A stretch of DNA of 64,000 bases from Thermoanaerobaculia bacterium (lineage in GTDB: Bacteria; Acidobacteriota; Thermoanaerobaculia; Thermoanaerobaculales; Sulfomarinibacteraceae): positions 7,127 to 71,126 of the forward strand of contig JAMOVQ010000142.1 in NCBI GenBank assembly GCA_027067575.1. The letters are read 5' to 3'. The notes beneath the pieces were generated by a model. The model made no database searches, had not been told where the DNA came from, and was given only the letters and a program-made list of their open reading frames with translations. The translations under genes and the position numbers were made by a program. Below, in pieces: positions 12,028-61,350 of the stretch (position 1 is the first letter of the stretch; each line of letters starts with the position of its first letter).

Positions 12028-14505
12028 TCACTGGGCCACGGGCATGACGTAGGTCGGGTCGCCGGTCCGGTCGTCCACCACCGAGGCGTAGCAGGTCCAG
12101 TGGTCGGGGTTGCCGGACTCCAGCCGGACCACGATCCATGCGTTCTCCACCGACACGCCGCCGAGGCCCATGTCCGTGAAGACGTCGTTGACCTGGCGGA
12201 AGGCGGCACCCGTCGTGTACGACCGGGTCGCCAGCACACTGCCCGAGGGTGACACGATGGAGACGCCGTAGCGCACCTGGCCCGCACTCGTCTGGACGAG
12301 CCCGAGGTTGGTGTGGAACCGGCCGGACACCGAATGGACCAGCGGCAGGGCGTACGACGCCGGCGGCGAACCGGCGAGCGGGATCGCCGGGATCCCCTGG
12401 CCGAACGTCGCCCCGTCCGTGCCGAGGTTGTAGGTCCGGGTCGTCACCACGATCCCCGGTCCGTCCGCCTCAACCAGGAGCAGGCCGCTGGTGGGGTTCA
12501 TGGGCAGGAGCGGATCGTCCAGGTACAGCATCCTCGAGGGGCCGAGGGTAACCGGTTCCGCCAGCACCGTCCCGGGCCACGACTGGCCGCCGGCGACGTA
12601 GTGGACGGTGACCGACCGGTCCGACGATCCGCTGTTGACCACGGCGAGCTCCGTCTTCCAGTTGGACGTCCCGTACCCCGGCGCCGAGGCTGCGGCGGGG
12701 ACGAGCCAGCGGGTCGCGCCGCCACCGCCCGCCCCAACGGTCAGCACGGCCGTGCAGACGTTGTTGGTCTCGTTGGTCTCCGGAACCGTGCCGGATGAGT
12801 CCACCGCCGTCCCGATGAAGTACCGGCCGTCCGGGAGACTCGCGGGCAGGACCAGGTCCATGGAGTCGGTGGAGTCGTACCCCGCCGGCCACCCTCCGCC
12901 GTCCATTGTGGCGAGGGGAGTGTCCCCAGCGTCGAACACGGCGTCGGTGGAGAGAAACGCCTCCCAGACGAACGCCGGGGCAGCCGTCGCCCCCTGGTTC
13001 CTCCAGCGGAAGCTCAGCCGGACGGTGTCCCCGGCGTTCGCATGGTCGGGGGAGACCGAGCACTCCGTTGCCGTCAGGTCGGGAAGGGAGGATGTGGCGA
13101 GGACCGTCAGCGGTGCCGCGACGGCGTTGTTTCCCTCCTCCGTCTCGGCTACGAGGTTCCCGTCGTCGACGGCGACCCCCAGCCAGTAACTCCCCTGGGC
13201 GACGTCCGCGGGGATCGTCACCCGCTGGCCCCACATGGCATCGCCGAACGTGTCGCCACCCGAGAGGGATCCGCTCTCCTGGAAGGTCGCGATCCGGCGG
13301 TCCGACCCGTCGATGGTCGCGTCGGTGGAGAGGTAGACGCCGGTGGAGAACGCCGTTCCCACCGCCCCGCTCCCCCCGACGTGAGCCGAGTACCGGAGAT
13401 CGAGCGCGCCGCCGGCCGCGACGGTGGACGGTGCGGGATCGGCGGAGTCCGCGACGAGGTCGATCCCGGATCCCGAGTCGTAGTACAGCGTGATGGACCA
13501 CTCATCGACGTACGCCGTCTCCACGGCGTACCGGTTGCATCCGCCGATGATGTAGTCGGTGTTCACCCGGCTCCCGTCGTACCGGTGCAAGTGGACGTCG
13601 ACCTGATGGTAGACCGTGTCGCCGGACGAGGTGCCTCCGTACAGGTCGATGGGGTCCGACCAGGCCATTCCCGGCGCGTCCCTGTGCCACATGGCCGCCA
13701 GAAACCGCGAGATGTCGACCGAGTGGTAGACGGTCCACTCGTCCTCGAACTCCGTGACCACCGCATCAGCCGGGGCCGTGGTGATGCTGATCGACGTTCC
13801 GTAGTACACGCCGTCACTGCACAGGTGGTCGGAGAAATCACCGTTCCAACCGTTGCTCCCCGTGACCGAATCCTTGTACGGCGGAACAGCAGCAGAGCGC
13901 ACCGAGGCGTGGATCGCCGACCTTGCCTCCTCCGCCTGGCGCAGCACCGCCTCAAGAGCCGGGTCGCTCTCACCGATCCGCCACCACCCCTCGTGGCCCT
14001 TCTCCAGCGTCGGAAACCGGGCCGCCGCCTCGGGGTCGAGCCGGACGGCGACGCACCGCTCCACGACACCCGCAGACGCCGGACCGATCCCGATCGCACC
14101 CGAGGGATCCCTTCGGATCGAGCGGTTCGCTTGGAGCTCCCGGTCCGGCCGCGATCCCTGCCGGCGGACCGTGATCCGAGACCTCGCTCCGGGGAAAAGC
14201 CCCGACAGGTCGAGAACCAGCCCGACATCGCCCGCCACGGGGACACGCGCCCTCCACACGGCGCCTTCCTTCCGCCACCACAGGTCGGCCCCGCCGGGGG
14301 CCTCCGCCCCGGCCGGCAGAAGGAGCTCCACGGTGTCCCCCGCCTCGAGCTCCGGCAGCCGCACGATCACGGCGTCCGCCGAGGTCACGCTCCCGACCTC
14401 CGGCGCCACGGGCCTCCTGACGGCGGACGCCGCCGGCAGGACGGTCGCCACAACGAACGACAACACGACGAGACGAACGGTCCAGCGGTGCGCGATCATC
14501 GACAT
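12028..14505 (-). CDS. Secreted multidomain protein: signal peptide, unassigned N-terminal region, two CARDB-like domains, C-terminal shared ~230-aa domain
   Basis: Start at ATG 14505 (MSMIAHRWTVRLVVLSFVVATVLPAASA) behind GGAAGGGGG. CARDB-like segments: DL..DSADPAPSTVAAGGALDLRYSAHVGG...GNNA and PDLTATECSVSPDHANAGDTVRLSFRWRNQGA...TNETNNV. The C-terminal 229 aa (12031..12717) is homologous to domains in the 16946, 57124 and 59210 genes. Confidence 0.7.
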   Translation of the reverse strand: MSMIAHRWTVRLVVLSFVVATVLPAASAVRRPVAPEVGSVTSADAVIVRLPELEAGDTVELLLPAGAEAPGGADLWWRKEGAVWRARVPVAGDVGLVLDLSGLFPGARSRITVRRQGSRPDRELQANRSIRRDPSGAIGIGPASAGVVERCVAVRLDPEAAARFPTLEKGHEGWWRIGESDPALEAVLRQAEEARSAIHASVRSAAVPPYKDSVTGSNGWNGDFSDHLCSDGVYYGTSISITTAPADAVVTEFEDEWTVYHSVDISRFLAAMWHRDAPGMAWSDPIDLYGGTSSGDTVYHQVDVHLHRYDGSRVNTDYIIGGCNRYAVETAYVDEWSITLYYDSGSGIDLVADSADPAPSTVAAGGALDLRYSAHVGGSGAVGTAFSTGVYLSTDATIDGSDRRIATFQESGSLSGGDTFGDAMWGQRVTIPADVAQGSYWLGVAVDDGNLVAETEEGNNAVAAPLTVLATSSLPDLTATECSVSPDHANAGDTVRLSFRWRNQGATAAPAFVWEAFLSTDAVFDAGDTPLATMDGGGWPAGYDSTDSMDLVLPASLPDGRYFIGTAVDSSGTVPETNETNNVCTAVLTVGAGGGGATRWLVPAAASAPGYGTSNWKTELAVVNSGSSDRSVTVHYVAGGQSWPGTVLAEPVTLGPSRMLYLDDPLLPMNPTSGLLLVEADGPGIVVTTRTYNLGTDGATFGQGIPAIPLAGSPPASYALPLVHSVSGRFHTNLGLVQTSAGQVRYGVSIVSPSGSVLATRSYTTGAAFRQVNDVFTDMGLGGVSVENAWIVVRLESGNPDHWTCYASVVDDRTGDPTYVMPVAQ

Positions 14506-16945: not shown

Positions 16946-18412
16946 ATGACCGGACGGATGGCGGCGTTCGTGCTGGCGGTGGCGACGGCGGCCCCGGGGG
17001 CCGCCCAGGTGCTGTGGATCCCCGCGGCGGCCCACGTCGGGGGGTACGCAGGGACGAACTGGCGGACCGACGTCGAGCTCAGGAACCCCGGCGGCGCGCC
17101 GGCCCGGGTCCGCATCGAGGCGTTCGCCCGCAGCGCCTCCGGGGCCGACCCCGTGGAGACCTCCGTCACGGTGCCCGCCAACGCGGCTGTGCGGCTGCCC
17201 GACATCCTGGCCTCACGGTTCGGGATGGACGGCGTGGCCGCGCTCCGGCTGACGCCGCTGGACGGGGCGGTCCTCGCGACGAGCCGTACCTACAACGAGA
17301 CGCCCGACGGGACGTACGGCCAGTTCGTCCCCGCCGTGCCGGAGACCGCCGCGTTCGGCCCCGGGGAGACGGCTGAGCTGATCGGCCTCTCCCAGTCGGC
17401 GTCCGGCGATGAGGGGTACCGGACGAACCTCGGCATCGTGGAGACCTCCGGGTGCGGCACGGTGGTGACGGTTGCGCTCCACGACGCCTCCGGGACCGAA
17501 ACCGGCCGGTTCGACCAGGCGCTGGGCCCGTACGGCTCGGTGCAGATCGACCGGGTGTTCCGGCGGGGCTCGCCGGGGGCCGTGGAGGACGGGTTCATCA
17601 CGGTGACCGTGGGGACCGACTGCGGCGCCGTGGTGCCGTACGCCTCGGTGGTGGACAACCGGACCGGCGACGCGATCCTGGTCCCGGCCCAGCCGCGCCC
17701 CGCCACGGCCGGGGCGATCGTCGCGGACCACGAAGCCGCGGACGCTTTCGACGCCATCCCCGCGGACCGGTTCGACGCCATCCGGGAGCGGTTCGGGCGG
17801 ATCCTGTACGGCCACACATCCCACGGCAGCCAGATCGTCACGGGCCTCGGGATGCTCGAGGCCGAGGACGGCGAGACCTGGGCCATGCCCTCCATCGACG
17901 AGATCTCCGCCGACCTCGGCCACCAGGGCGACCTCGGGTGGGTCGACATCACCCGGGACCGGCTCGGCACCGACGGCGCGGGGTACGGCATGGTGGTCTG
18001 GTCGTGGTGCGGCGGCATGTCGGACAACACCCCGGAGGGGGTCCAGGCGTACCTGGACGCCATGGCCGCGCTGGAGGCCGACTACCCGGGGATCGTCTTC
18101 GTGTACATGACGGGCCACCTGGACGGGACCGGCCCGGAGGGGACGCTTCGCCGCAACAACGACCAGGTGCGCGACTGGTGCCGGGAGCGCGGCCGGGTCC
18201 TGTTCGACTTCGCCGACATCGAGCGGTGGGACCCCGACGGCGTGGAGCACCCGTGGGACTCGGACGCCTGCGAGTGGTGCGCCGACTGGTGCGCCGGCCA
18301 CGACTGCCCCGACTGCGGCTCCTGCGCCCACTCCCACTGTTTCAACTGCTGGCGCAAGGGCCGGGCGTTCTGGTGGCTGCTCGACCGCGCCGCGGCGTCC
18401 CGCCCGCGCTGA
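16946..18412 (+). CDS. Secreted protein: signal peptide, shared ~230-aa domain (N-terminal), unassigned catalytic-looking domain, Cys-rich tail
   Basis: ATG 16946 lies 7 nt after GGAGG. Signal peptide MTGRMAAFVLAVATAAPGAAQ. Residues 22-250 (17009..17695) are homologous to 12031..12717. The C-terminal half has YGHTSHGSQ, WSWCGGMSDN and VFVYMTGHLDG, and ends in CEWCADWCAGHDCPDCGSCAHSHCFNCW. Confidence 0.65.
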   Translation: MTGRMAAFVLAVATAAPGAAQVLWIPAAAHVGGYAGTNWRTDVELRNPGGAPARVRIEAFARSASGADPVETSVTVPANAAVRLPDILASRFGMDGVAALRLTPLDGAVLATSRTYNETPDGTYGQFVPAVPETAAFGPGETAELIGLSQSASGDEGYRTNLGIVETSGCGTVVTVALHDASGTETGRFDQALGPYGSVQIDRVFRRGSPGAVEDGFITVTVGTDCGAVVPYASVVDNRTGDAILVPAQPRPATAGAIVADHEAADAFDAIPADRFDAIRERFGRILYGHTSHGSQIVTGLGMLEAEDGETWAMPSIDEISADLGHQGDLGWVDITRDRLGTDGAGYGMVVWSWCGGMSDNTPEGVQAYLDAMAALEADYPGIVFVYMTGHLDGTGPEGTLRRNNDQVRDWCRERGRVLFDFADIERWDPDGVEHPWDSDACEWCADWCAGHDCPDCGSCAHSHCFNCWRKGRAFWWLLDRAAASRPR

Positions 18413-23558: not shown

Positions 23559-23968
23559 TCAGGAGCGGGAGGTGCGGGAGGCGACCTGGAGGCGGGTGAC
23601 GGCGAGCTGGAGGCGGGCGCGCATCCGGTCGAGCTCGGCGGCGTCGGCCGTCTTCAGCGCTTCCTCCATCTCCCGGCGCTCCCGTTCGGCGGCCTCCACG
23701 TCGATCTCGCCCGGCGCCTCCGCGCCCTCGGCGAGCACGGTGACGCGGTCGGGCATGATCTCCGCGAATCCACCGCGGATCGCCAGGTACGCCTCGGCTC
23801 GGTCGCGTCGGTACATCAGCTCGCCGATCCCAAGTTTCGTCAGGAGCGGCGTATGCCCGGGGAGCACGCCCAGCGCACCAAGGACGCCCGGCAGCTCCAC
23901 GAAATCCGCGTCCACCGACAGCACCAGACGGGTCCGCGTCACGACATCGAGATGGACCGTCTCGGCCA

Positions 23969-23969
<1 letters not shown>
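23559..23969 (-). CDS. atpC: F1 ATP synthase epsilon subunit
   Basis: MAETVHLDVVTRTRLVLSVDADFVELPGVLGALGVLPGHTPLLTKL... has typical epsilon N-terminal beta-sandwich motifs. ATG 23969 overlaps the atpD stop by 1 nt (TGATG). Confidence 0.9.
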
Positions 23970-25432
<1,463 letters not shown>

Positions 25433-26297
25433 TTACGCCTCCGAGCCGAGCGCCTCGGCGCCGGCCACGATCTCCAGGATCTCCTTGGTGATGGCCGCCT
25501 GACGGGTCCGGTTGTAGACCAGCGTCAGATGGTCGATCATCTCGTCCGCGTTCTTGGTCGCCGCGTCCATGGCGGTCATCCGTGCGGCCTGCTCTGCCGC
25601 CGCGGAGTCGTACAGCGCACGCTGGGTCTGGATCGCCACGTGCCGCGGCAGAAGCTCCGAAAGCAGCGCCTCCGCCGAGGGCTCGTACAGGTAGTCGATG
25701 CCGCCGGCCTCGTCCTCCGCCTCCACTGCCGCGGGCGGCTCGATGGGCAGCAGCCGCTCGAGCACGATCTCGTGCCGGATGATGCTGAGGAACCGGTTGT
25801 ACAGCAGGTACACCTCGTCCACCTGGCCGGAGTCGAACGCCGTGACGAACATCTCGGCCAGCCGCGGGCCATCCTCGGCGGTCAGCTGGGACATGGTTTC
25901 GCGCTCGGCGTGGACCACGTGCCAGTCCCGCTTCCCGAAGTGGTCTGCGGCCTTCTTGCCGATGGCGACGATCTCGACCCCGGGCCACCCCTTCTCGGAG
26001 AGCACGTGTTCCGCCTCCCGGAGGAGATTCGAGTTGAAGGCGCCGCACAGCCCCTTGTCGCCGGAGACCACCACGAGCCAGACGTTCCGGACCTCCCGCT
26101 CCTCGAGCAGCGGATGGGTGTGCTCCGTGCGCGCCGCCAGGTTCTGAAGGACGCGCTGCAGCGTGTCCGCGTACGGCCGGGCCGCGGTGATCCGCTCCTG
26201 GGCCCGGCGCAGCTTGGCCGCGGCGACCATCTTCATCGCCTTGGTGATCTGCTGGGTCCCCTTGACCGAGCGGATCCGCCGCTTGAGATCGCGGGCG

Positions 26298-26305
<8 letters not shown>
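25433..26305 (-). CDS. atpG: F1 ATP synthase gamma subunit
   Basis: (M)[35 protein letters not shown]...[18 protein letters not shown] start 7 nt after GGAGG. Overlaps the atpA 3' end by 8 nt. Confidence 0.92.
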
Positions 26306-27836
<1,531 letters not shown>

Positions 27837-27853
27837 CGTCCCTCAGTCGTCGC

Positions 27854-28402
27854 TCACTCGAGCCCGGCGGCCGTGCGGCGAAGCCGCTCCAGCTGTCCGA
27901 GCGCGGAACCGTCCACCACGCGCGAGCCCACCCGGGCGCGGAACCCGGCCAACAGCGCGTCGTTGGTCGAGAACGAGGCCACCACGGCGGCCCCGAACGC
28001 CTTGCTCAGCGTGTCCACGATCGTCCTTCGTGTCACATCGTCCACCGTGCCCGGAACCTCCACGGCCGCCCGGACACGCCCGAGCCTGCGGTCCACCAGC
28101 TCGGCGTACGCCTCGGCGATGGCGCCGAGGTGGCGGAGCCGGTACTGGCGCTGCACCACGAGCACGAACCGCCGCACCACGTCGTGGACCCCGGCCCGGT
28201 CGAGGATGGCCCCAAGCAGCGCCTCCTTGCGCTCCTGCGTGATCGCGGGCGTCACCATCATGCGGCCGAGCTCCGGCACGGCGCCGAACGCCCGCGCCAG
28301 CTCCAGGAGCTCGGCCTGGATCGGCTCCATGGCGTCCGGCTCGGTGTCGGCCACGAGCCCGAGCAACGCCTTGGCGTACGGCATGGCGGAGAACCGTCCC
28401 AT
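27854..28402 (-). CDS. atpH: F1 ATP synthase delta (OSCP) subunit
   Basis: ATG 28402 (MGRFSAMPYAKALLGLV...) lies 1 nt after the atpF stop. 182 aa. The position between atpF and atpA and the C-terminal LLAGFRARVGSRVVDGSALGQLERL fit delta. Confidence 0.85.
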   Translation of the reverse strand: MGRFSAMPYAKALLGLVADTEPDAMEPIQAELLELARAFGAVPELGRMMVTPAITQERKEALLGAILDRAGVHDVVRRFVLVVQRQYRLRHLGAIAEAYAELVDRRLGRVRAAVEVPGTVDDVTRRTIVDTLSKAFGAAVVASFSTNDALLAGFRARVGSRVVDGSALGQLERLRRTAAGLE

Positions 28403-28403
28403 C

Positions 28404-28979
28404 TCAGCTCCCTCCCTCGCCGCTGGAGGCCAGCGCGGCCAGGCTCCGCTCGAGGATCCGCTTCCGGTCCTCGTCGGTGGTCTCGCGCTCGAGCAGCTCC
28501 TTCGCCAGCTCCGCCGCAAGGGTCGCCGTGTCGGCCACGAGCTGCTGGCGGACCTCGGCCTGACGCCGGCCGATCTCCGAGGCGACCTTCTCCACGAACC
28601 GGGCGGCCTCCTCCTCGGCGAGCGCACGGATCCGCTCGGCTTCCTTGCGGCCGGCCACCTCGGCCTGTTCGCGCATCTCCTGGACCTCGCGCTCCACGGC
28701 CTCGAGCCGCTCGACGACCTGCTGCCGGAGCGACTCGGCCTCGGCGAGCTTCTTCCGGGCAGCCTCGAGCTCCTGCTGGATCCCCGCCCGCCGCTCTTCG
28801 AGGAACCGGGTGATGGGCCGCCCGACATACCGGGCGAGCAGGACCAGGAACACCACGAGGTTGAGTGTCAGCCACAGCGGCCGTGGAATCCCGAAGAACG
28901 TGGTGCTCTCCTCCGCCGCCAGCGCCACGGCCGGCGTCAGCGCAACGCCGATCGCCGCAATCCAGGCAACCCGTCTCAC
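28404..28979 (-). CDS. atpF: F0 ATP synthase subunit b
   Basis: Single N-terminal TM (PRPLWLTLNLVVFLVLLARYV) followed by a long charged helix. The GTG start overlaps the upstream stop (GTGA). Confidence 0.85.
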   Translation of the reverse strand: MRRVAWIAAIGVALTPAVALAAEESTTFFGIPRPLWLTLNLVVFLVLLARYVGRPITRFLEERRAGIQQELEAARKKLAEAESLRQQVVERLEAVEREVQEMREQAEVAGRKEAERIRALAEEEAARFVEKVASEIGRRQAEVRQQLVADTATLAAELAKELLERETTDEDRKRILERSLAALASSGEGGS

Positions 28980-29410
28980 GACGCCACCTCCCGGCCCAGC
29001 ACCCGCCCGGCCATCAGGGCGGCGAGCTTCCCCGCCTCGCGCCGGAGCGCCTCACGGGCCTGCTCGGCATCCTTCTCGAGCTCTGCCAGGGCGGCCTGGA
29101 GCCGTGCGTGGGCCTCGGCACGGGCCGCCTCGAGCCGCTTCTGTCGCTCCGCCTCCGCTTCGGCCCGCAGCGCCTCCCGCCGCTTTGCTGCCTCCCGGGC
29201 CGCCTGCTCCAGCTCCGCCTCGAGCCTCTGCGTGGCCGAGAGGTACTCCTCGTGCTTGCTCGACCACTGGGCCTCGGCGTCGTCGACCCGCTTCCTGCGG
29301 GCCTCCACCACGGCGGTGACCGGACGCAGGAGGAACCGGTTGACGATCCAGTACGCCACCCAGAAGCAGGCCATGATGTAGAGAAGGGAGTAGTCTGGAA
29401 AGATGCTCAT
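28976..29410 (-). CDS. F0 ATP synthase subunit b' (second b-type subunit)
   Basis: N-terminal TM (LLYIMACFWVAYWIVNRFLL), then an Ala/Glu/Arg-rich helix. Lies directly upstream of atpF. Confidence 0.7.
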   Translation of the reverse strand: MSIFPDYSLLYIMACFWVAYWIVNRFLLRPVTAVVEARRKRVDDAEAQWSSKHEEYLSATQRLEAELEQAAREAAKRREALRAEAEAERQKRLEAARAEAHARLQAALAELEKDAEQAREALRREAGKLAALMAGRVLGREVAS

Positions 29411-38152: not shown

Positions 38153-38287
38153 TCAGACGCTGAGACGCTTGCGCCCCTTGGCCCGGCGGGCCTTGAGCAC
38201 ACGCCGGCCGCCCCGTGTCCGCATCCGGACCCGGAAGCCGTGAGTCTTCCTCCTGCGGCGGTTGTTGGGCTGAAATGTTCTCTTCAT
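38153..38287 (-). CDS. rpmH: 50S ribosomal protein L34
   Basis: Below the track's 60-aa cutoff. The reverse strand encodes [44 protein letters not shown] followed by a stop. Confidence 0.95.
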
Positions 38288-38321
38288 CGTGCATCACGCT
38301 CCTGTTTCGTTCGGGCGCCGA

Positions 38322-38350
38322 ACCCTATCGCAACGGACGACTTGTGTCAA
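38322..38350 (-). promoter_or_regulatory. Sigma-70-type promoter for rpmH-rnpA operon
   Basis: The minus strand reads TTGACA-17 nt-TAGGGT (plus-strand tgtcaa 38345..38350 and acccta 38322..38327). A GTTCGG-cgc-CCGAAC hairpin lies in the leader. Confidence 0.45.
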
Positions 38351-38416
38351 GCGTGCCGGGGCTTCCCTGACACCCGCCCGTTCACCCCACAGGCTGTGCT
38401 ACGCTTTCACATTGCG

Positions 38417-39706
38417 ATGGAAGACCGCTGGTCACAGCTCGCCCCGGACATCCGGCAGCTCCTCGGTGAGGAAGAGTACGAGACGTGGATCGCCCCGCTT
38501 CAGGTCGTTTCCGAGGCGCCCCGGTCGATCACGGTGGGCTCGGAAAACGCCATCGTGCTCGAGTGGGTCCGGGACCACTATCTCCACGATATCGAGACCG
38601 TCGCGCGGAGCCGGTTCGGCCGGGACTTCCAGCTGCTGATCGACAACGGTTCCACGAGCGGTGAGTCATCGACGATCCAACCCGCAAACCCGCTGCCGTT
38701 CGCCATGAACCCTGCGTTCACCTTCGAGCGGTTCGTCGTCGGACCATCGAACCAGTTCGCAGCAGCAGCAGCCGAGGCGGTTGCGGACCAACCTGGACGT
38801 TCGTACAACCCCCTGTTCCTCTATGGTGGATCCGGCCTCGGAAAGACGCACCTATTGCACGCCATCGCCCACAGGGTCCACGCCCGGCACCCGGAGCTCA
38901 GAGTCGAGTACCTGACGACGGAGCAGTTCGTCAACGACCTGATCAACTGTATCCGGCGCAAGAAGATGGAGGAGTTCCGGGACCGGTTCCGCCACCTCGA
39001 CGTGCTGCTACTCGACGACATCCAGTTCATCTCCGGCAAGGAACGAACCCAGGAAGAGTTCTTTCATACCTTCAACACGCTCCAGTCCGCCGACCGTCAG
39101 GTGGTCTTCACCTCCGACTCGAGACCCGCCGACCTCCCAGGCCTCGAGGAACGCCTGCGCTCAAGGTTCCTCCAGGGACTCCTGGCCGACATCCAACCTC
39201 CGGACCTCGAAACCCGCTGCGCGATCCTTCGCGAGAAGGCCCGGGCCGCTGGGTGGGAGCTCCCCGAGGAAGTCGTCCTGTTCATCGCGCGGCGCGTCCA
39301 GAAGAACGTTCGCGAACTCGAGGGCTGCCTCAACCGGACCATCGCCTACGCTCAGCTGACGAACCTCCCGGTCACCGTCGAGCTTGTTCGCAAGGCGCTC
39401 TCCGAGCTCCTTCCGGAGGAGCGGGAGCTGACCCCCGCCGAGATCATCCGGTTCGTCGCCCATCACTATGGCGTCCGGGTCGCCGACCTCAAGGGACGGT
39501 CGAACCGCCGCTCGATCTCCCTCCCACGCCAGGTCGCCATGTACCTCGTCCGGAAGATTCTCGGCCTGAGCTACCCGGACATCGGCCGCCTGTTCTCGAA
39601 GCACCATTCCACAGCGATCTACGCCGTGGAAAACATCGAGAAACAAAGACAATCCAACCCAGATTTCGACGCGACGCTCACATCGTTCGTCGATCATTTC
39701 CACTGA
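38417..39706 (+). CDS. dnaA: Chromosomal replication initiator DnaA
   Basis: ATG 38417 (MEDRWSQLAPDIRQLLGEEEYETWIAPL). YNPLFLYGGSGLGKTHLLHAI Walker A, LLLDDIQF, the box VII region, and the C-terminal HTH SLPRQVAMYLVRKILGLSYPDIGRLFSKHHSTAIYA. 429 aa. Confidence 0.95.
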   Translation: MEDRWSQLAPDIRQLLGEEEYETWIAPLQVVSEAPRSITVGSENAIVLEWVRDHYLHDIETVARSRFGRDFQLLIDNGSTSGESSTIQPANPLPFAMNPAFTFERFVVGPSNQFAAAAAEAVADQPGRSYNPLFLYGGSGLGKTHLLHAIAHRVHARHPELRVEYLTTEQFVNDLINCIRRKKMEEFRDRFRHLDVLLLDDIQFISGKERTQEEFFHTFNTLQSADRQVVFTSDSRPADLPGLEERLRSRFLQGLLADIQPPDLETRCAILREKARAAGWELPEEVVLFIARRVQKNVRELEGCLNRTIAYAQLTNLPVTVELVRKALSELLPEERELTPAEIIRFVAHHYGVRVADLKGRSNRRSISLPRQVAMYLVRKILGLSYPDIGRLFSKHHSTAIYAVENIEKQRQSNPDFDATLTSFVDHFH

Positions 39707-39900
39707 GGTTGTGAAATGCCCGTCCCTTCCACAACCGTTCACAGCCGACCCACAACACTTTCCACAGGAGTCTGCTCGCTCAAGTCTCGACTCAGCAGAA
39801 CCATGGGAAAGAATGCACAGACCGACAGGCCTCGACGACGATGACTATCTGTAGTATATTTCTTTTCGTCATAGACTTAGATGCCTCCGAGGAGCTGTGA
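39707..39900. other. Candidate oriC (DnaA-box cluster plus AT-rich unwinding element) in the dnaA-dnaN spacer
   Basis: Four same-orientation boxes: CCTTCCACA (39725), CGTTCACAG (39736), GACCCACAA (39748) and CTTTCCACA (39758; 7/9 to TTATCCACA). Their CACA cores are spaced 10, 11 and 12 bp apart. About 80 bp downstream lies the only strongly AT-rich run I noticed, ATGACTATCTGTAGTATATTTCTTTTCGTCATAGACTTAGAT (39841..39882). Confidence 0.55.
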
Positions 39901-41004
39901 ATGGATCTAAAACTCCACCAAAGTGACGTCCTCCGAGAGCTTTCCCTCGTCCATGGTGTTGTGGAACGCCGGAGCCCCATCCCGATCCTCGCCAACATCC
40001 TTCTTGAGGCCAGCGGGGACCGCCTCCGGCTGACCGCCACGGATCTCGACATGACCGTCATGACGTCATGCCCCGCGGAGGTGCGGGCCGAGGGCCGGCT
40101 GACCGTGGCGAGTACGGTGTTCCAGGAGCTCGTTCGAAACCTCCCAGAGGAGGAGTTCACCGTCAGGCTCGACGGGGAGGGCGTGATCATCTCGAGCGGC
40201 CGGTTCACTTCCAGGATGGCGATCCTCGACGCCGGGGAGTTTCCCACGGTGCCGGAGGAGCCTCCGGATGACGGTTTTCCAGTCTCGCTCCCGCTGCTCC
40301 AGACGATGTTCTCGCGCGTCGCCTTCGCCATCACGAAGGAGGATCCAAAGTTCCAGCTCAACGGAGCGTTGATCCGTTTTCTCCCAGGAGAGCTCGAGAT
40401 CGCCGCGACGGACGGGCACCGTCTTGCTGTGGTTCGCGCCCGAACGGAGGGTAGCGATCCGCCGTTCGAGCGCCAGCTGTTTCCGAGGAAGCTTCTGGCC
40501 GAGTTCTCCCGGTTCGATGGGGAGCACGTGCTGCTGTCGGTCCATGAGAACCACGTCGGGTTCCGGATGGGATCCCGTTCACTGATCTCGAGAATCGTCG
40601 ATCTTCGGTTCCCGCAGTACGAGAAGGTCATCGTCCGGGACAACCCGCACCGGGCTCGGGTCGGCCGTCAGGAACTCCTGACGGCGCTCCGGCGGGTCAG
40701 CCTCCTCGCCCACGAGAAGGCTCGTGGGGTGCGGTTCCGGTTTGGCACCGATGGCGAACTGACGCTGGTCTCCATCGGCCAGGAGCTGGGTACGGCGGAG
40801 GAGGTTCTGGCCGTCGACTACCAGGGAGCGCCCATCGATATGGCGCTCAACGCGATGTACGTGATCGACGTCCTCAATGTGCTGGAAACGGATCAGGTTG
40901 AGATCCAGCTGAAGGATGCAGCCACCCAGTGCGTCATCGTGCCCGTGGACGATGACGGGCGCCTCGAGGAGTACATCTACGTGGTCATGCCCATGCGGGT
41001 CTGA
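39901..41004 (+). CDS. dnaN: DNA polymerase III beta sliding clamp
   Basis: 367 aa with a three-domain clamp pattern (LANILLEASGDRLRLTATDLDMT..., ATDGHRLA..., PMRV C-terminus). Canonical position after dnaA. Confidence 0.95.
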   Translation: MDLKLHQSDVLRELSLVHGVVERRSPIPILANILLEASGDRLRLTATDLDMTVMTSCPAEVRAEGRLTVASTVFQELVRNLPEEEFTVRLDGEGVIISSGRFTSRMAILDAGEFPTVPEEPPDDGFPVSLPLLQTMFSRVAFAITKEDPKFQLNGALIRFLPGELEIAATDGHRLAVVRARTEGSDPPFERQLFPRKLLAEFSRFDGEHVLLSVHENHVGFRMGSRSLISRIVDLRFPQYEKVIVRDNPHRARVGRQELLTALRRVSLLAHEKARGVRFRFGTDGELTLVSIGQELGTAEEVLAVDYQGAPIDMALNAMYVIDVLNVLETDQVEIQLKDAATQCVIVPVDDDGRLEEYIYVVMPMRV

Positions 41005-41009
41005 ACACG

Positions 41010-42131
41010 GTGCATCTTGAGTCGCTCGAGACCACGGGTTTCCGGAACCTCCGGAACGGCGCGGTCCAGTTCGGTCCGGGCTGGAACCTCGTGCTCGGAG
41101 CGAACGGCCAGGGCAAGACGAACCTTCTGGAGGCGATCACTGTCCTCGGGACGCTCCGGTCGTTTCGTACGCAGAACCTCCGCCGGGCCGTCCGCCACGG
41201 AGAACGCCGGTTCGTCCTCCGCGGTCTGTTCCGGACGGGTAATCTGGCAAGGGAGCTCGCCATGGAGCTCACCTTCGGTCCGGCCCCCAGGAGGCGGCTC
41301 CTGCTCGATGGTTCAGCCGTCGAGCCACGCCGGTATCTCCAGACCGTCCGGGTCGCGGTCCTGACCGGGAGGCGGGAGAACATCGTCTCCGGAGAGCCGC
41401 GGATCCGGAGGGCGTTCCTCGACCGGCTCGTCTTCCAGCTCCGGCCGGCGATGTTCGACGTCCTTCGCGCCTACCGGAGGCTCCTCGCCCAGCGGAACGC
41501 GTGGCTTCGCTCCGGCGGATCGTCCTCGGAGGCCGACGTCTGGGAGTCGGTCCTGGCGCGGGAGGCGGCGACCATCGTTGTGGCGAGGCGGCAGGTGGTC
41601 GCCCGGCTCGAACCCGTCTTCCGAGAGCTGATCCGGGAGGTCGGTGCCGGACGGCTCCCCGAGGTCGGGCTGTCGTACCGTGCCGAGAGCTGGCTTCCCG
41701 CGGGGGAGGCCGCCGCCGAGCTGGCGGAAAAGTATGGAATGATGTATCATTCGGCGCGTGAAAGGGATGGAAGGCTGGGTTTTACAGGGTATGGACCCCA
41801 CCGCCACGACCTGCAGGTGACAGCGGAGGGTCGCCCGGCAGCGGAAAATCTGAGTGCTGGCCAGGCAAGGCTCGTCGCGGCGGTTCTCAGGCTTGCGGCG
41901 GTGGAGCTTGTCGAGGGGAAGACTCCTCCCGACGGGCCGGGGATCGTTGTGATGGACGACGCCGATTCAGAGCTCGATCCGGAGGCGTTCCGGGCCCTGC
42001 TCACACGGGTCGGCAGGGGACGCCAGGTGATCCTTTCCAGTCCCAGGGAAGCGGAGGTCCGGAGCGCCGTGGCCACGGGAACGGTGCTCCGGGTGCTCGA
42101 CGGAGCCGTCCTTGGCGGACGCGGAGACTGA
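41010..42131 (+). CDS. recF: DNA replication and repair protein RecF
   Basis: GTG start. FRNLRNGAVQFGPGWNLVLGANGQGKTNLLEAI Walker A, the signature SAGQARLVAAVLRLA, and Walker B VVMDDADSELD. Confidence 0.92.
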   Translation: MHLESLETTGFRNLRNGAVQFGPGWNLVLGANGQGKTNLLEAITVLGTLRSFRTQNLRRAVRHGERRFVLRGLFRTGNLARELAMELTFGPAPRRRLLLDGSAVEPRRYLQTVRVAVLTGRRENIVSGEPRIRRAFLDRLVFQLRPAMFDVLRAYRRLLAQRNAWLRSGGSSSEADVWESVLAREAATIVVARRQVVARLEPVFRELIREVGAGRLPEVGLSYRAESWLPAGEAAAELAEKYGMMYHSARERDGRLGFTGYGPHRHDLQVTAEGRPAAENLSAGQARLVAAVLRLAAVELVEGKTPPDGPGIVVMDDADSELDPEAFRALLTRVGRGRQVILSSPREAEVRSAVATGTVLRVLDGAVLGGRGD

Positions 42132-47037
<4,906 letters not shown>

Positions 47038-57123: not shown

Positions 57124-59109
57124 ATGGGAAACATGCGAGGCGTGTGCGCGATGGTCGTCGGGATCGTGGTCGGGCTCTCCGTCGCTGCCGGAGCCCTGGC
57201 GTCCTTCCCCGGGACGGACGTCTTCGTCCCCTCGGTGGGGCATGGGGCGGGCTCGGGCGGGTCCCAGTGGCGGACGACGCTCTGGATCTTCAATCCCGGT
57301 GAGGCCGGGGCCAACTGCCGGATCGAGCTTCTGATGCGTGGGGGGAGCAACCCAGAGCCGGCCGGGGCCTTCAACCTCACCGTGGGGCCGGGCGACACCG
57401 TCCGGTTCGACGACGCGGTGTGGGCGCTGTTCGGGGTCGAGGGGTACGGCGCGCTCCGGGTGACCTCCAGCGCCGAGGTCGTGGTCAACTCCCGGATCTT
57501 CAACCAGGAAGGGGACGATATCGCGGATACCCAGGGCCAGTTCTTCCCGGCGATCCCTGCCGGTTTCTCCATTGGGCCGGGGGAGACCACGGACATCCTG
57601 GGAGTCGACCAGGCGGGCGATGGAGCCTTCCGGTACAACTTCGGGATCGTGGAGACCTCTGGCCACGACATCGTCGTGGAGGCGACCCTGCTCGACGGCG
57701 AGGGCAACGCGCTGGGCGGCAAGGCGTACACCCTGGGGCCGTTCGGGGTCATGCAGGTCAACGTCTCGGACCTCGGGACCGGAACCCATCCGACGGCGAA
57801 CGGCCGGATCCACGTCTTCCTCCGTCCCGAGAGCGAGGGCTCGGCCATCGTCTTCGGTTCCGGGATCGCCAACGCCTCCCAGGATCCATCGACCTTCGAG
57901 ATGACCATGGATGCCACCGGTGGCGGGACGGGTGGCGACCTGTCGTTGCCCTACCGGGGAACGGGCAGCTCCTCCGGCTCCCTGTTCGCGGTGGAGAACA
58001 CGGGCTCCGGCACGGCGGTCGAGGGCCGGTCGGACGGCGGCACCGGGGTCCTGGCCGACACGGATTCCGGCAGCGCGGTTCGAGCCAGGGCGTCGTCGAC
58101 CTCGGGAGCGGCGATCCAGGCCGAGAACACCGCCCGCGGAATCTCCGTCGCCATCGCGGCCGAGCGCGGCGTCGACGTCGAGTGCTCGGAGTGTACGGCG
58201 GTCAAGGGCGTGTCGGAGATCGCCCTCGGGGGGTTCTTCTCGAGCACCAACGGCAAGGGGCTGCGCGTCAGCAGCACAAACAACATCGGGATCGACGTCA
58301 GCAGCACCAGCAACACCGGGATCGACGCCACGGTGTCCGGCGGGAATCCCGCCGTTCTCGGGAAGAACCTTGGAGACGGCGCGGCCGCTTCGTTCTACGC
58401 CGCGGACTACTACGCCGTGTTCGCCAGGTCGGACTCGGCGTACGAGCCGGCGGTCGAGGGCCGGGGGTTTGTTGGAGGGGTCTACGGTAAGGCGTATGAG
58501 GAGGGCTGTGCCGGGGTGCTGGGCCTCAACGAGTACGATGGAGGGTACGGAATCTGGGGTTACGCGGGAATCAGATCCCTGGCGGGGCACTTCACGGGGG
58601 ACGTGGAGGTCTTCGGATCGCTGACCAAGAGCAGCGGATCGTTCAAGATCGACCACCCGCTGGATCCGGAGCACAAGTACCTCTACCACTCGTTCGTCGA
58701 GTCCCCCGACATGATGAACATCTACAACGGCAATGTTGTGACGGACGCGTCCGGTTACGCGACGGTCACCCTGCCGGACTGGTTCGAGGCGCTCAACCGG
58801 GATTTCCGGTACCAGCTGACCGTGATCGGCGGGGGCGACCAGTGGGCGCTGGCGCGGGTTGCCCGGAAGATCGAGGACAACACCTTCGTCATCCAGACCA
58901 GCGCGCCGTACGTCGAGGTCTCCTGGCAGGTGACGGGGATCCGCCACGACCCGTGGGCGGAGGCCCACCGGATCCCGGTCGAGGAGGAGAAACCCGAGGC
59001 GGAGCAGGACCACTACATCCACCCCGAGCTCTACGGCGCCACGGTCCGGGAGAGCGTCGAGGCCGGGCGGAATCCGGCGTTCATGGAACGGATCCTGCAA
59101 GATCGGTAG
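57124..59109 (+). CDS. Secreted protein: signal peptide, shared ~230-aa domain (N-terminal), Gly/Ser-rich beta-helix-like repeats, conserved C-terminal domain
   Basis: ATG 57124 behind GGAAGGAG. Signal peptide MGNMRGVCAMVVGIVVGLSVAAGALA. Residues 31-260 (57214..57903) are homologous to 17009..17695. The middle has short repeats (GTAVEGRSDGGTGVLADTDSGSAVRA..., VSSTNNIGIDVSSTSNTGIDA). The C-terminal region reads GSFKIDHPLDPEHKYLYHSFVESPDMMNIYNG...DFRYQLTVIG...VSWQVTGIRHD. Confidence 0.65.
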   Translation: MGNMRGVCAMVVGIVVGLSVAAGALASFPGTDVFVPSVGHGAGSGGSQWRTTLWIFNPGEAGANCRIELLMRGGSNPEPAGAFNLTVGPGDTVRFDDAVWALFGVEGYGALRVTSSAEVVVNSRIFNQEGDDIADTQGQFFPAIPAGFSIGPGETTDILGVDQAGDGAFRYNFGIVETSGHDIVVEATLLDGEGNALGGKAYTLGPFGVMQVNVSDLGTGTHPTANGRIHVFLRPESEGSAIVFGSGIANASQDPSTFEMTMDATGGGTGGDLSLPYRGTGSSSGSLFAVENTGSGTAVEGRSDGGTGVLADTDSGSAVRARASSTSGAAIQAENTARGISVAIAAERGVDVECSECTAVKGVSEIALGGFFSSTNGKGLRVSSTNNIGIDVSSTSNTGIDATVSGGNPAVLGKNLGDGAAASFYAADYYAVFARSDSAYEPAVEGRGFVGGVYGKAYEEGCAGVLGLNEYDGGYGIWGYAGIRSLAGHFTGDVEVFGSLTKSSGSFKIDHPLDPEHKYLYHSFVESPDMMNIYNGNVVTDASGYATVTLPDWFEALNRDFRYQLTVIGGGDQWALARVARKIEDNTFVIQTSAPYVEVSWQVTGIRHDPWAEAHRIPVEEEKPEAEQDHYIHPELYGATVRESVEAGRNPAFMERILQDR

Positions 59110-59209
59110 GTGCGGCACCGGCAGGGAGGGGGGTGTGCCGGGGACCCTTGGCGGGCCCGGGGGGCGGTGGTAGAGTTCCGGCGCACACTTCATCGAAGGG
59201 GGGATCACC

Positions 59210-60610
59210 ATGTACCGCAACCGCTCCGTCCGTCCGTTCGCGCACGCCGTGTCGGGGCCGCTCGCGGTGGCTGCCCTGGCGCTGTCGTTCCTGGCGCTGG
59301 CCGGCGCCCCGCCCGCCTCGGCCGAGACGTTCACCGTCGATGCCATCAGGTCGGAGTTCGGCTCCATCGACTTGGGCCTCGGCGAGACGTCGTTCTGCTG
59401 GTACTTCGGCGAGAACATCGCCAGGGACGGGACCGAAGTTCTGGCGGCGGGGTTCGACCTGTCGTTCCTGCCGCCCGGGACCGTCGTCAACGGCGCGACG
59501 CTGTCCATCATCCTCACCAACGGAAACGGGAACCCGACGTCGCTCGGCGCGCTGGAGGCCGCGGTGCTGCGCCCGTTCTCCATCTCGGCCCCGGGCGCCC
59601 CGTACGTGGAGCCCCGGTGGGCCACGGCCGAGGCCTGGCCCGCCGTGACGCTGGCCGACCCCGTCCCCGCCGGAGGGGGGACGTTCTCCGGCGACATCAC
59701 GGACGCCGTCCGCCAGTGGTTGGGGGCGGACCACGAGGGCGACCCCGGCCGGCTGATCGTCCGGTTCTGGCTCGACGGCGCCCCGAACGGCGACGATGCC
59801 CTGGACCGGTGGCGGACCCACTTCCCGCCGCGGCTCCGGCTCGACGTGACGCTCCCCGACCCCATCGCCAGCCGGCCCGTCGACCGGCACGAGATCCACG
59901 TGCTCCCCGTGGCCGCGTCCAACGACGGGCTCGCCGGGACGCGGTGGGTCACCGAGCTCTCCCTCCGGAGCACGGTGCTCGACCACCCGATCGCCGTCTG
60001 GCTCTACTACACGCCCTCGGGCGTCTCCGGTATGGACACCTTCCAGGTCCGGCGGATCGACCTCGCCCCGGAGACGACGCGCACCTTCGATGACCTGCTG
60101 CCGGAGCTGTTCGGCGTCGGAGGCCAGAAGGGGTGGGTCGAGCTGTTCTTCTCGAGTCCCGGTGTGGAGGCCGTGGGCCGAATCGCCAACGTTGGCGGCG
60201 AGGGGACCTACGGGCAGACCGTCGGGCTCCAGGGCTGGGAGACGGCCGCCTCGACCCTGGGATGCGGGTACCGTACCTCGGTCTACCGGACCATCCCCGG
60301 CGTCCGGCTGGACGCCGCCAGCCGGAACAACCTCGGGTTCGTCAACGTGACGCCCATCCCCGCCACGGTGCGCGTGGAGATCCGCCGCCCGGACGGGAGC
60401 ACATCCGTGTCGCTCGACGTCCCGGTCCCGCCCATGGGGCACGTCCAGCTCCGCAGGCTGACCGACCTCGCACCGGAGCTCGCCGGCTACGGCGCCACCG
60501 CCGTCTCCTTCCACCCGGACTGGCCCGACTCCGGTGACGTCACCGTCTTCGGCTACCTCTCCCGCGTGGACGAGACCACCGGCGACGCCGTCTTCGTCCC
60601 GGGGCGGTGA
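59210..60610 (+). CDS. Secreted protein: signal peptide, unassigned N-terminal domain, shared ~230-aa domain (C-terminal)
   Basis: ATG 59210 behind GAAGGGGGG. Signal peptide with an ASA|ET cleavage site. The C-terminal 239 aa (59891..60607) is homologous to 12031..12717 (LPVAAS..GLAGTRWVTEL...GTYGQT...NNLGFVN...SRVDETTGDAVFVP). Confidence 0.6.
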   Translation: MYRNRSVRPFAHAVSGPLAVAALALSFLALAGAPPASAETFTVDAIRSEFGSIDLGLGETSFCWYFGENIARDGTEVLAAGFDLSFLPPGTVVNGATLSIILTNGNGNPTSLGALEAAVLRPFSISAPGAPYVEPRWATAEAWPAVTLADPVPAGGGTFSGDITDAVRQWLGADHEGDPGRLIVRFWLDGAPNGDDALDRWRTHFPPRLRLDVTLPDPIASRPVDRHEIHVLPVAASNDGLAGTRWVTELSLRSTVLDHPIAVWLYYTPSGVSGMDTFQVRRIDLAPETTRTFDDLLPELFGVGGQKGWVELFFSSPGVEAVGRIANVGGEGTYGQTVGLQGWETAASTLGCGYRTSVYRTIPGVRLDAASRNNLGFVNVTPIPATVRVEIRRPDGSTSVSLDVPVPPMGHVQLRRLTDLAPELAGYGATAVSFHPDWPDSGDVTVFGYLSRVDETTGDAVFVPGR

Positions 60611-60856: not shown

Positions 60857-61135
60857 TTACCGGCGGTACACCGACCGCCGATGGGCCACGCGCAGGACCG
60901 TCACGAGGATCCGCTCACCGTCGAAGCCGTAGATCACGCGGTAGCTTCCCACCCGGAGGCGCCGGAGCCCCCTCCACTCCCCGGACAGGACCGAACCGGC
61001 CAGCGGGTCGGCCCGAAGCCCCTCCACCGCGGCGACGACCCGTTCCCGTGCCCTCCGCGGAAGGGCCCGGAGCTCCTTGACGGCACGCCGTTCCCACAGG
61101 ATCTCCGGCGGGTGGGACGGACCATCCGCTCTCAC
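60857..61135 (-). CDS. Type II toxin, RelE/ParE family
   Basis: GTG 61135 overlaps the antitoxin stop (GTGA). ILWERRAVKELRALPRRARERVVAAVEGLRADP...LRRLRVGSYRVIYGFDGERILVTVLRVAHRRSVY is the typical RelE/ParE pattern. 92 aa. Confidence 0.8.
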   Translation of the reverse strand: MRADGPSHPPEILWERRAVKELRALPRRARERVVAAVEGLRADPLAGSVLSGEWRGLRRLRVGSYRVIYGFDGERILVTVLRVAHRRSVYRR

Positions 61136-61350
61136 TCGAGCCCCAAGTCGTCCTTGACCTGCTCGTGGTCCACCCACTCCGCGCCGGGATCGCGAAGGCG
61201 AGCCAGGGCGATCTCCAGATCGTCCCGCTCGGCCAGGTAGAGCTCCAGCGCCTCGACGATGAACGAGCTCTTCGACCGCCGGGTCTCCCGGGCGAGCGCC
61301 TCCAGCCTCTCGGCGATCTCCTCCGGCAACCGGATCGACTGAACGGCCAT
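61132..61350 (-). CDS. Type II antitoxin, ribbon-helix-helix (CopG/RelB-like)
   Basis: ATG 61350 directly behind AGGAGG. MAVQSIRLPEEIAERLEALARETRRSKSSFIVEALELYL is an RHH fold signature. 72 aa, upstream of the toxin. Confidence 0.8.
   Translation of the reverse strand: MAVQSIRLPEEIAERLEALARETRRSKSSFIVEALELYLAERDDLEIALARLRDPGAEWVDHEQVKDDLGLE

Follow-up and report, generated by a model that had tools for sequence, protein, structure and literature searches.

Four segments of the window, meaning the whole 64,000-nucleotide stretch of DNA that was analysed, are copies of one module of about 230 residues, and this module is built from two homologous 8-stranded beta-sandwiches of about 113 residues each, arranged in tandem as a dyad. 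[quoted passage not shown] The best explanation overall, held with moderate confidence, is that the module is an ASRAH-type dyad and an exported, non-catalytic unit for ligand binding or targeting, probably directed at glycan. The family to which it belongs is very large and has no Pfam or NCBIfam model of its own.

Module copies and the genes that carry them

The four genes and their module copies are located in the window as follows, with E values and model positions referring to a family profile built without any window sequence.

57124..59109, + strand: gene A, ORF of 661 aa, start codon checked, same start called in an independent assembly; signal peptide, double beta-sandwich module, Gly/Ser-rich repetitive region, conserved C-terminal region
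57124..57201, + strand: predicted Sec signal peptide of gene A, read from the translation, with cleavage after MGNMRGVCAMVVGIVVGLSVAAGALA and before SF
57214..57903, + strand: module copy A (two ASRT-like beta-sandwich units), N-terminal; E 6e-39, model 7-243
59210..60610, + strand: gene B, ORF of 466 aa, exact protein present in a public assembly; signal peptide, weakly DNRLRE-like N-terminal region, module at the extreme C terminus
59210..59323, + strand: predicted Sec signal peptide of gene B, read from the translation, with cleavage after ...ALAGAPPASA and before ET
59891..60607, + strand: module copy B, extending to the protein's final residue; E 5e-33, model 13-248
12028..14505, - strand: gene C, ORF of about 825 aa, start MSMIAHRW; signal peptide, unassigned region, two CARDB stretches, module at the extreme C terminus
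12031..12717, - strand: module copy C, C-terminal; E 1e-50, model 9-249
16946..18412, + strand: gene D, ORF of 488 aa, start checked; signal peptide, module, C-terminal region with weak SGNH-esterase similarity, Cys-rich tail
17009..17695, + strand: module copy D; E 2e-80
17009..17347, + strand: first beta-sandwich unit of copy D, 113 aa, 8 strands, modelled alone

The first-pass annotation, made from the sequence alone, had described four copies of about 230 aa at the above coordinates, and all four were recovered by the window-free profile (E 2e-80 to 5e-33); a six-frame scan of the window detected no fifth copy. The annotation had also taken E > 1e-3 as failure of a pairwise alignment. In BLASTP comparisons of the translated segments, five pairs were significant at this level (A-D, 1.5e-37; C-D, 1.1e-18; A-C, 5.4e-17; B-D, 1.1e-12; B-C, 1.3e-6), and A-B, at 0.031, was not. 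The adjacent copies, which had been said to align with each other, are thus the least similar pair, and are joined to one family via C and D. Copy B is the most divergent of the four, and copy D, which is nearest the family consensus, was chosen for the structure models. The motifs listed in the annotation are present, in degenerate form in B and, for the C-terminal motif, in A.

Placement of the module within signal-peptide proteins is shuffled as described earlier, with the module near the N terminus of proteins A and D and at the C terminus of proteins B and C. Read from the translations, the N terminus of each of the four proteins has an n-region, an h-region and an AxA-type site, and export by the Sec pathway is predicted for all of them. 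The window copies gave no significant match to Pfam-A or NCBIfam, in agreement with the statement that no named family could be assigned. The whole of gene A was without a match in Pfam, NCBIfam or PDB sequences, its C-terminal region included, to which no family could be assigned. The N-terminal region of gene B matched DNRLRE_dom at E 0.005 and 16.9 bits, under the cutoff of 34. CARDB was matched by gene C in two stretches (Pfam search, E 1.2e-15; best stretch about 12751..13083), and the C-terminal region of gene D was weakly similar to the esterase TesA (4jgg, E 0.019).

Fold and remote relatives

The module had been described as a single domain that could not be placed. The AlphaFold2 model of the whole module (copy D; pLDDT 95.1, pTM 0.91) contains two strand blocks of the same pattern, the N and C halves align in register over 85 columns by hhalign (E 3.8e-5), and a single unit of copy D modelled alone folds into 8 strands (pLDDT 94.9). 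When this unit was compared with the PDB using Foldseek, the best match was TM1070 (1nc7; E 1.6e-4, probability 1.0), which aligned at full length over 113-116 columns with a TMq of 0.70-0.72 and a TMt of 0.68-0.70. The next matches were the ASRT chains 2ii7, 2ii8, 2ii9 and 2iia, with probabilities mostly of 0.97-1.0 and TMq mostly of 0.45-0.56, and among the matches listed none beyond TM1070 and ASRT exceeded a TMq of 0.45.

RbmA is a double FnIII biofilm scaffold protein. It was the top Foldseek match of the whole two-unit model (E 1.1e-4), with TM 0.19-0.26 and rmsd 17-19 Å, and on account of this low TM and high rmsd it was rejected as a specific structural relative, the match reflecting nothing more specific than two sandwiches in a generic arrangement. 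The module might instead serve oligomerisation or scaffolding, the paired units associating with one another or with further copies into multimeric or matrix-like assemblies of secreted proteins, similar to the scaffold role of RbmA, with no specific small ligand. We consider this unlikely. It is in line with the RbmA match, with the tetrameric state of both TM1070 and ASRT and the occurrence of secreted ASRAH members always as dyads or tetrads (PMC2739507), and with the presence of two adjacent modules, i.e. four units, in 114 of the 150 top representatives of the family. The generic nature of the RbmA match argues against it, and near-invariant R, D, N, T and Q residues, polar and of surface type, at equivalent positions of the two units suit a defined binding site better than a packing surface, although an interface between units could likewise conserve them.

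The ASRAH superfamily, which is predicted to be sugar-binding, was defined on ASRT and TM1070 by De Souza, Iyer and Aravind (2009, PMC2739507) and comprises Anabaena ASRT (2ii7), Thermotoga TM1070 (1nc7) and the Pfam family ASRT/DUF1362. The module resembles its members in the size and strand number of the unit, with TM1070 (TM 0.70) and ASRT as the only specific structural matches, and resembles the secreted families in that its units are paired, often as two adjacent pairs. Unlike ASRT and TM1070, it is predicted to be extracellular, has many different fusion partners and is without detectable sequence similarity to either protein: Pfam ASRT was absent at E<=1 in all 78 members scanned, and when the whole module or a single unit was run as a profile against PDB sequences, neither 1nc7 nor 2ii7 came up, nor anything else of relevance. 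Because a sequence-level match to ASRT or TM1070 is lacking, the link to ASRAH rests on one Foldseek search with modest E values (about 1e-4) and on the bridge that DUF5719 provides. Acidobacteriota are absent from the species listed in the supplement of the 2009 paper.

DUF5719 is the Pfam model nearest to the module and the only one with recurrent matches on it. Its gathering cutoff of 26.2 bits was reached by none of the window copies. Copy D alone scored 16.2 bits (E 0.006; residues 11-63 on model positions 57-109) and the near-full-length protein D 11 bits (E 0.23; 33-265 on model positions 57-273 of 319); A, B and C had no match at E<=1. Among the relatives, P0255 passed the cutoff with 31.3 bits (483-627 on model 62-195, inside the copy at 442-702), P0225 scored 21.0 bits (518-595 on model 60-135, inside the copy at 473-732), and P0181 scored 24.2 bits, the start of its copy being aligned instead from model position 170 onward. 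The matches fall on the module; for D, P0225 and P0255 they are also colinear with its beginning. In two scans, just 5 of 78 and 4 of 46 members of the family showed any DUF5719 match.

[quoted passage not shown] We infer that DUF5719 is this family, and coverage of model positions 57-273 of 319 by the module fits two units with flanking extensions. Unlike the actinobacterial lipoproteins, none of the four window proteins, as translated, carries a lipobox cysteine at its cleavage site. Flanking extensions are lacking too: in A and D the module begins 1-5 residues past the point of predicted cleavage, and in B and C it runs to the very C terminus, so that no extension follows it there. A glycosyltransferase/WhiB context was not seen among the recurrent neighbour families, taken without Pfam annotation.

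Family size, distribution and architectures

At 50% identity the family comprises 9,479 cluster representatives at E<=1e-3 and 3,542 at E<=1e-30. The best 79 genome loci all lie in metagenome-assembled genomes (MAGs) of Acidobacteriota, with several loci per genome and up to 6 of the best 80 in one MAG, and the named relatives seen were all uncultured Acidobacteriota of the classes Thermoanaerobaculia and Holophagae. The lineage expansion proposed by the first-pass annotation is therefore upheld. Both classes are known in this analysis from MAGs only, and no relative carries a functional name; since the module occurs in thousands of secreted proteins and has no usable Pfam or NCBIfam model, all of these are annotated as hypothetical. 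A dedicated profile would improve the annotation of these genomes.

Partner domains include PKD, LVIVD, CARDB, GH5/GH39/GH42-like, GDSL lipase, PPC and FGE-sulfatase domains, as well as Kelch, LRR, M6 protease, thioredoxin-like and esterase domains. In P0253 and P0255, a glycoside hydrolase is followed by an Ig-like region and two modules. Every carrier inspected looks secreted. The module is N-terminal in 57 of the 150 top representatives and ends the protein exactly in 71, as it does in B and C.

These C-terminal placements and the apparent secretion of all inspected carriers would be compatible with a sorting or anchoring function, in which the module, once recognised by export or attachment machinery, would fix its cargo to the outer cell surface. 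We regard this as decidedly doubtful, and nothing found here supports the cell-surface anchoring suggested earlier. An obligate C-terminal position is contradicted by A, D and the 57 representatives in which the module stands directly after the signal peptide, and we know of no C-terminal sorting signal, such as the type IX secretion C-terminal domain, with such N-terminal placement. At about 230 residues, and often doubled, the module is far above the size of known sorting tags; P0179 and P0004 have a C-terminal hydrophobic, basic tail of their own after it; and no secretion or attachment genes recur beside the module genes.

Conserved residues and proposed ligand binding

Over 419 domain copies, the invariant residues in copy D numbering are W18, D21, R93, T94, N96, G104, Q105, R138, N140, G142, S213, D216, N217 and D221, with conservation of 98% for R93 and 99% each for Q105, R138, D216 and D221. 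The second strand reads W18-R-T-D-h-x-h-x-N26-P-G in the N unit and [FY]137-R-T-N-h-G-h-h-N145 in the C unit, and its outward-facing R and D/N are nearly invariant, as are other polar residues within SRT[YF]N, GT[YF]GQ and ASVVDNxxGD. W18, present in 100% of the copies, follows a polar residue and begins strand 2 of the model. N26, with the following P-G, is N in 74% of copies, among them A, C and D, and is absent from B; N145 is found in 85% and is E in D.

In ASRAH domains, a Trp after a polar residue marks the start of strand 1, a nearly invariant Asn closes strand 2 before a tight turn, and ASRT has the signature SHEshChhN (PMC2739507). The second strand of the module, a 9-residue element with a terminal Asn and a tight turn after it, would resemble this signature if the strands are equivalent. 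It would then differ from ASRT in having R and D/N where ASRT has the ligand-contacting His and Cys, and from ASRAH in general in the place of the invariant Trp, which in the model opens strand 2 and not strand 1; strand 1 begins with an aromatic residue in somewhat more than half of the copies (Y 45%, F 10%), and with W in C and D. From strand order and spacing, strand 2 of the module is proposed to correspond to the ligand-cleft strand of TM1070, and under this presumed strand equivalence its spacing fits S24..N32 of that protein.

Following its export by the Sec pathway, the module would bind a ligand without catalysis and would keep the enzyme or adhesin domains fused to it in place there, as carbohydrate-binding modules (CBMs) do. 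The putative binding face lies on strand 2 of both units, and the polar residues of the three motifs above may contribute the rest of the site, possibly where the two units meet. This agrees with the earlier guess of ligand binding, to which the fold evidence also points. The same polar invariants could alternatively form an active or metal site, for example together with a fused selenocysteine thioredoxin-like domain, a catalytic or redox role that we consider highly improbable. Their very strong conservation and the fusion to a U-x-x-C thioredoxin-like domain in many close relatives would favour it, but the module is a plain beta-sandwich, none of its specific structural relatives is an enzyme, many unrelated catalytic partners supply their own chemistry, and no enzyme family was matched in Pfam, NCBIfam or PDB sequences.

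For the binding role, the ligand is most probably either a carbohydrate polymer or a glycan of the cell surface. Many partner domains are of types common in secreted proteins that act on glycans or serve adhesion, and these point in this direction; against glycan, the partners are highly varied and some (Kelch, LRR, thioredoxin-like) have no glycan link, and given this variety another ligand or a scaffold role could apply. The gene neighbourhoods contained no glycan-specific signal. Like CBMs, CARDB and PKD, the module consists of beta-sandwich units that are often tandem or terminal on secreted glycoside hydrolases, esterases and proteases. Unlike CBMs, this putative binder has, judged at the level of the fold, the strand topology of ASRT, which has been set apart from CBM4 and beta-galactosidase-type sandwiches (PMC2739507), and no CBM-type Pfam family matched it in sequence. 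Placement with ASRT and DUF5719 gives the module a testable function, the binding of a ligand that is probably a glycan, and defined residues to mutate.

A more far-reaching and rather improbable extension is a surface-display or substrate-targeting system, so far confined to Acidobacteriota, in which dozens of different secreted enzymes and adhesins per genome would share one common ligand and so be brought to one location. This ligand could be an envelope polymer of the cell itself or a glycan abundant in the environment, and among the proteins so targeted there could be a secreted selenocysteine thiol oxidoreductase that has so far gone unannotated.

As a separate observation, the module is fused to the U-x-x-C domain in many of its close relatives, and many of the apparently stand-alone homologs are truncated selenoproteins; a dedicated profile would reveal the same of many "271-aa" database entries.

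Four homologous segments in the window

The four segments named in the first-pass annotation as copies of one unnamed secreted domain of about 230 aa (copy A, 57214..57903; B, 59891..60607; C, 12031..12717; D, 17009..17695) were located inside four long ORFs of the window, the G+C content of which is 70%.

57124..59109, plus strand: gene A, 661 aa, with an identical start in the independent public assembly Logan SRR7968104
59210..60610, plus strand: gene B, 466 aa
12028..14505, minus strand: gene C, about 825 aa
16946..18412, plus strand: gene D, 488 aa

Pairwise BLASTP of the translated segments gave significant alignments for five of the six pairs (A-D, E 1.5e-37; C-D, E 1.1e-18; A-C, E 5.4e-17; B-D, E 1.1e-12; B-C, E 1.3e-6), and only the adjacent pair A-B was not significant (E 0.031). 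A profile built from 74 homologs with the window sequences excluded, searched with Z set to 1e6, matched all four segments over nearly its full length (D, E 2e-80; C, E 1e-50; A, E 6e-39; B, E 5e-33). The homology of the four segments was confirmed by these five pairs and by the profile; mutual alignment at E below 1e-3 held for every pair except A-B. No fifth copy was detected in a six-frame scan of the window. In all four proteins the N terminus runs from basic to hydrophobic residues and then to an AxA-type site, which suggests that each protein starts with a Sec signal peptide and is exported.

The module genes lie dispersed between core housekeeping genes instead of forming an island. The following additional features were observed in the window, those of the replication and ATP synthase clusters being named from their translations.

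1079..1528, plus strand: small ORF with a type IV pilin or pseudopilin N-terminal motif (MRKERGFTLIELLIVVAIIGIIAAIAIPNLL)
23559..29410: ATP synthase operon
38240..47037: replication-origin-type cluster of dnaA-, dnaN-, recF-, gyrB-, and gyrA-like ORFs
60857..61135 and 61132..61350, both minus strand: ParE-type toxin and ribbon-helix-helix antitoxin genes directly downstream of gene B, with ParE_toxin and RHH_1 recorded as Pfam labels on the identical contig

Internal duplication, conserved residues, and fold

Copy D was modelled with AlphaFold2 using a 78-sequence alignment, and the resulting all-beta model (pLDDT 95.1, pTM 0.91) consists of two consecutive blocks whose strand patterns agree. 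When the profiles of the N-terminal and C-terminal halves were aligned with each other, they were in register over 85 columns (E 3.8e-5), pairing WRTD with FRTN and SRTYN with SVVDN. Two copies of a unit of about 113 residues, the result of an internal duplication, therefore make up the domain of about 230 aa; when modelled alone, the unit forms eight strands (pLDDT 94.9).

Conservation of module positions in 419 copies from 270 proteins, numbered on copy D
W18: 100%
D21: 96%
N26: 74%
R93: 98%
T94: 98%
N96: 94%
G104: 100%
Q105: 99%
R138: 99%
N140: 98%
G142: 95%
N145: 85%
S213: 94%
D216: 99%
N217: 95%
D221: 99%

Strand 2 of each unit comprises nine residues, of which the fifth and seventh are hydrophobic and the last is an Asn preceding a turn; its sequence is W-R-T-D-h-x-h-x-N-P-G in the N-terminal unit and [FY]-R-T-N-h-G-h-h-N in the C-terminal unit. 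The near-invariant R and D/N occupy alternate, outward-facing positions of this strand.

Structure comparisons were performed using Foldseek. With the whole two-unit model all matches had low TM values (RbmA, SGBP-B, birnavirus VP2, and others), since the orientation between the units differs, and they were set aside as uninformative; RbmA and SGBP-B are proteins of two sandwiches, and TM1070 of Thermotoga was also matched over half the length. When one unit was used, the three best matches were chains of TM1070 (1nc7; E 1.6e-4 to 2.5e-4, prob 1.0, TM 0.68-0.72, 113-116 aligned columns). [quoted passage not shown]

The ASRAH superfamily, defined by ASRT and TM1070, comprises eight-stranded sandwiches with a cleft lined by strand 2, which has the signature SHEshChhN and a conserved Asn at its end (De Souza, Iyer and Aravind, Biol Direct 2009, PMC2739507). 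Judging from strand order and spacing, strand 2 of the module would correspond to the ligand strand of TM1070 (W18..N26 against S24..N32) and would contribute the binding face. The secreted ASRAH families always occur as dyads or tetrads, the dyads as a lipoprotein of actinobacteria extended at both the N and the C terminus and the tetrads fused to an amidase in Chloroflexi (PMC2739507); compared with these, the module is a dyad that is usually doubled to give four units. Such a four-unit arrangement, together with the tetramers formed by relatives, would also suit a self-associating scaffold, a role that we regard as unlikely and that explains the invariant polar residues less well.

Family assignment, architectures, and proposed function

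For none of the four proteins did the module give a significant Pfam-A or NCBIfam match, PHROGs gave no match, and neither the whole-module profile nor the one-unit profile found anything for it among PDB sequences. The module has no significant match to a characterised family, and the first-pass annotation stands in this respect. The only Pfam model recurring on it was DUF5719 (PF18986, function unknown), to positions 57-273 of which residues 33-265 of protein D aligned with E 0.23, the D domain alone scoring 16.2 bits (E 0.006). DUF5719 matches were found in 5 of 78 and 4 of 46 relatives, all located ones falling within a module copy; the homologous proteins P0225 and P0181 scored 21 and 24.2 bits, and P0255, at 31.3 bits, exceeded the curated cutoff of 26.2 bits. 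On these grounds the module family is a remote relative of DUF5719, although the window copies are not captured by that model. The module accounts for positions 57-273 of the 319 in the model, a mapping that makes DUF5719 a putative equivalent of the published actinobacterial dyad with its flanking extensions (PMC2739507); a literature search for DUF5719 found nothing. The precomputed label PF25839.1, present on the homolog P0003 only, was not reproduced by a Pfam scan of that protein at E<=0.1.

Searching 1.84 billion cluster representatives exhaustively with the profile retrieved 9,479 proteins at E<=1e-3, 3,542 of them at E<=1e-30. The module does not represent a categorically new kind; it forms a new and very large family among the extracellular beta-sandwich binding modules of ASRT/DUF5719 type, and one that current models serve poorly. 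Two adjacent modules were present in 114 of the top 150 representatives, a ranking that favours multi-copy proteins. The module formed the exact C-terminal end in 71 of these 150 and lay near the N terminus, at the start, in 57. Its frequent position at the extreme C terminus would fit a sorting or anchoring domain, a role made quite doubtful by the N-terminal position, which is just as common, by the module's large size, and by the lack of linked machinery; a C-terminal anchor tail after the module was clear in one case among 270 proteins.

The partner domains are of types found in secreted proteins. PKD was present in 15 of 46 relatives, and further partners were LVIVD and other beta-propellers, CARDB, FGE-sulfatase, Big_1/invasin, LRR, PPC, fn3, GH5/GH39/GH42-like domains, GDSL lipase, Kelch, FG-GAP, and M6 metalloprotease. 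In the homologous proteins P0253 and P0255 a glycoside hydrolase is followed by an Ig-like region and two C-terminal modules, which is the classic arrangement of a carbohydrate-binding module. The interpretation towards which we lean, with little more than even confidence, is that the module is exported and, as an ASRT-like double sandwich with no catalytic role, binds a ligand (most probably a glycan) and targets the attached domains by bringing them to it.

Within the window, protein C carries a CARDB match (E 1.2e-15) and protein B a sub-threshold DNRLRE-like stretch. The non-module parts of all four proteins matched nothing among PDB sequences except for the C-terminal part of D (17696..18412, about 238 aa), which weakly matched the SGNH esterase TesA (4jgg, E 0.019) and ends in a Cys-rich tail (CEWCADWCAGHDCPDCGSCAHSHCFNCW); this part is possibly an esterase domain that carries a metal or disulfide cluster. 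The C-terminal part of A (58600..59106) is a conserved-looking region (…SFKIDHPLDPEHKYLYHSFVESPDMMNIYNGNV…) after a Gly/Ser-rich repetitive stretch, with no Pfam, NCBIfam, or PDB sequence match and a sole weak match to the uncharacterised phrog_24674 (E 0.036).

Probably truncated relatives and genomic neighbourhood

Of the 120 best database matches, 68 have lengths of 250-292 residues and appear to consist of a signal peptide and module only. Six of these were inspected and share the conserved end tail (R)LVVFE[AS][FL]xRxG. In five related loci with homologs annotated at about 271 aa (L043:4662, L045:6643, L050:4064, L065:6748, and L078:6748) this tail is followed by an in-frame TGA as the "stop". 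A conserved continuation lies beyond it; in four loci the next stop comes after 199 residues, and in L050 the continuation reaches the end of the contig. The aligned codon in a sixth locus (L063:5054) is TGC (Cys), giving a U/C-P-x-C motif. In four of the five TGA loci a G+C-rich hairpin with the conserved core GCGCC-GGGAC-GGCGC lies about 14-16 nt 3' of this codon, L045 having a shorter variant. The continuation weakly resembles glutaredoxin and thioredoxin at the CxxC site (Pfam Glutaredoxin, E 0.0099). The short entries are probably truncated, unannotated secreted selenoproteins in which the module is fused to a thioredoxin-fold domain; none occurs in the window, and a literature search for Thermoanaerobaculia and selenoproteins found nothing. 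A catalytic or redox role for the module itself is considered highly improbable.

When one genome per GTDB species was scanned with a single motif, 346 loci were obtained, the best 79 of which were all from Acidobacteriota MAGs (Thermoanaerobaculia and Holophagae), with up to 6 of the top loci in a single genome and no relative more than 55% identical to copy D. At least two domain genes lay within about 12 kb in 10 of 70 loci with a called domain gene. Gene-neighbour clustering of the 79 related loci identified a Ser/Thr kinase, a possible sensor-type protein, and an ABC transporter as recurrent families, which were judged probably to reflect synteny among related genomes and not a functional link. 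A large Ser/Thr protein-kinase-like gene was situated less than 6 kb from module genes in 13 of the 79 loci (e.g., L010:6026-8770, minus strand), and an ABC transporter pair was found near module genes in 7.
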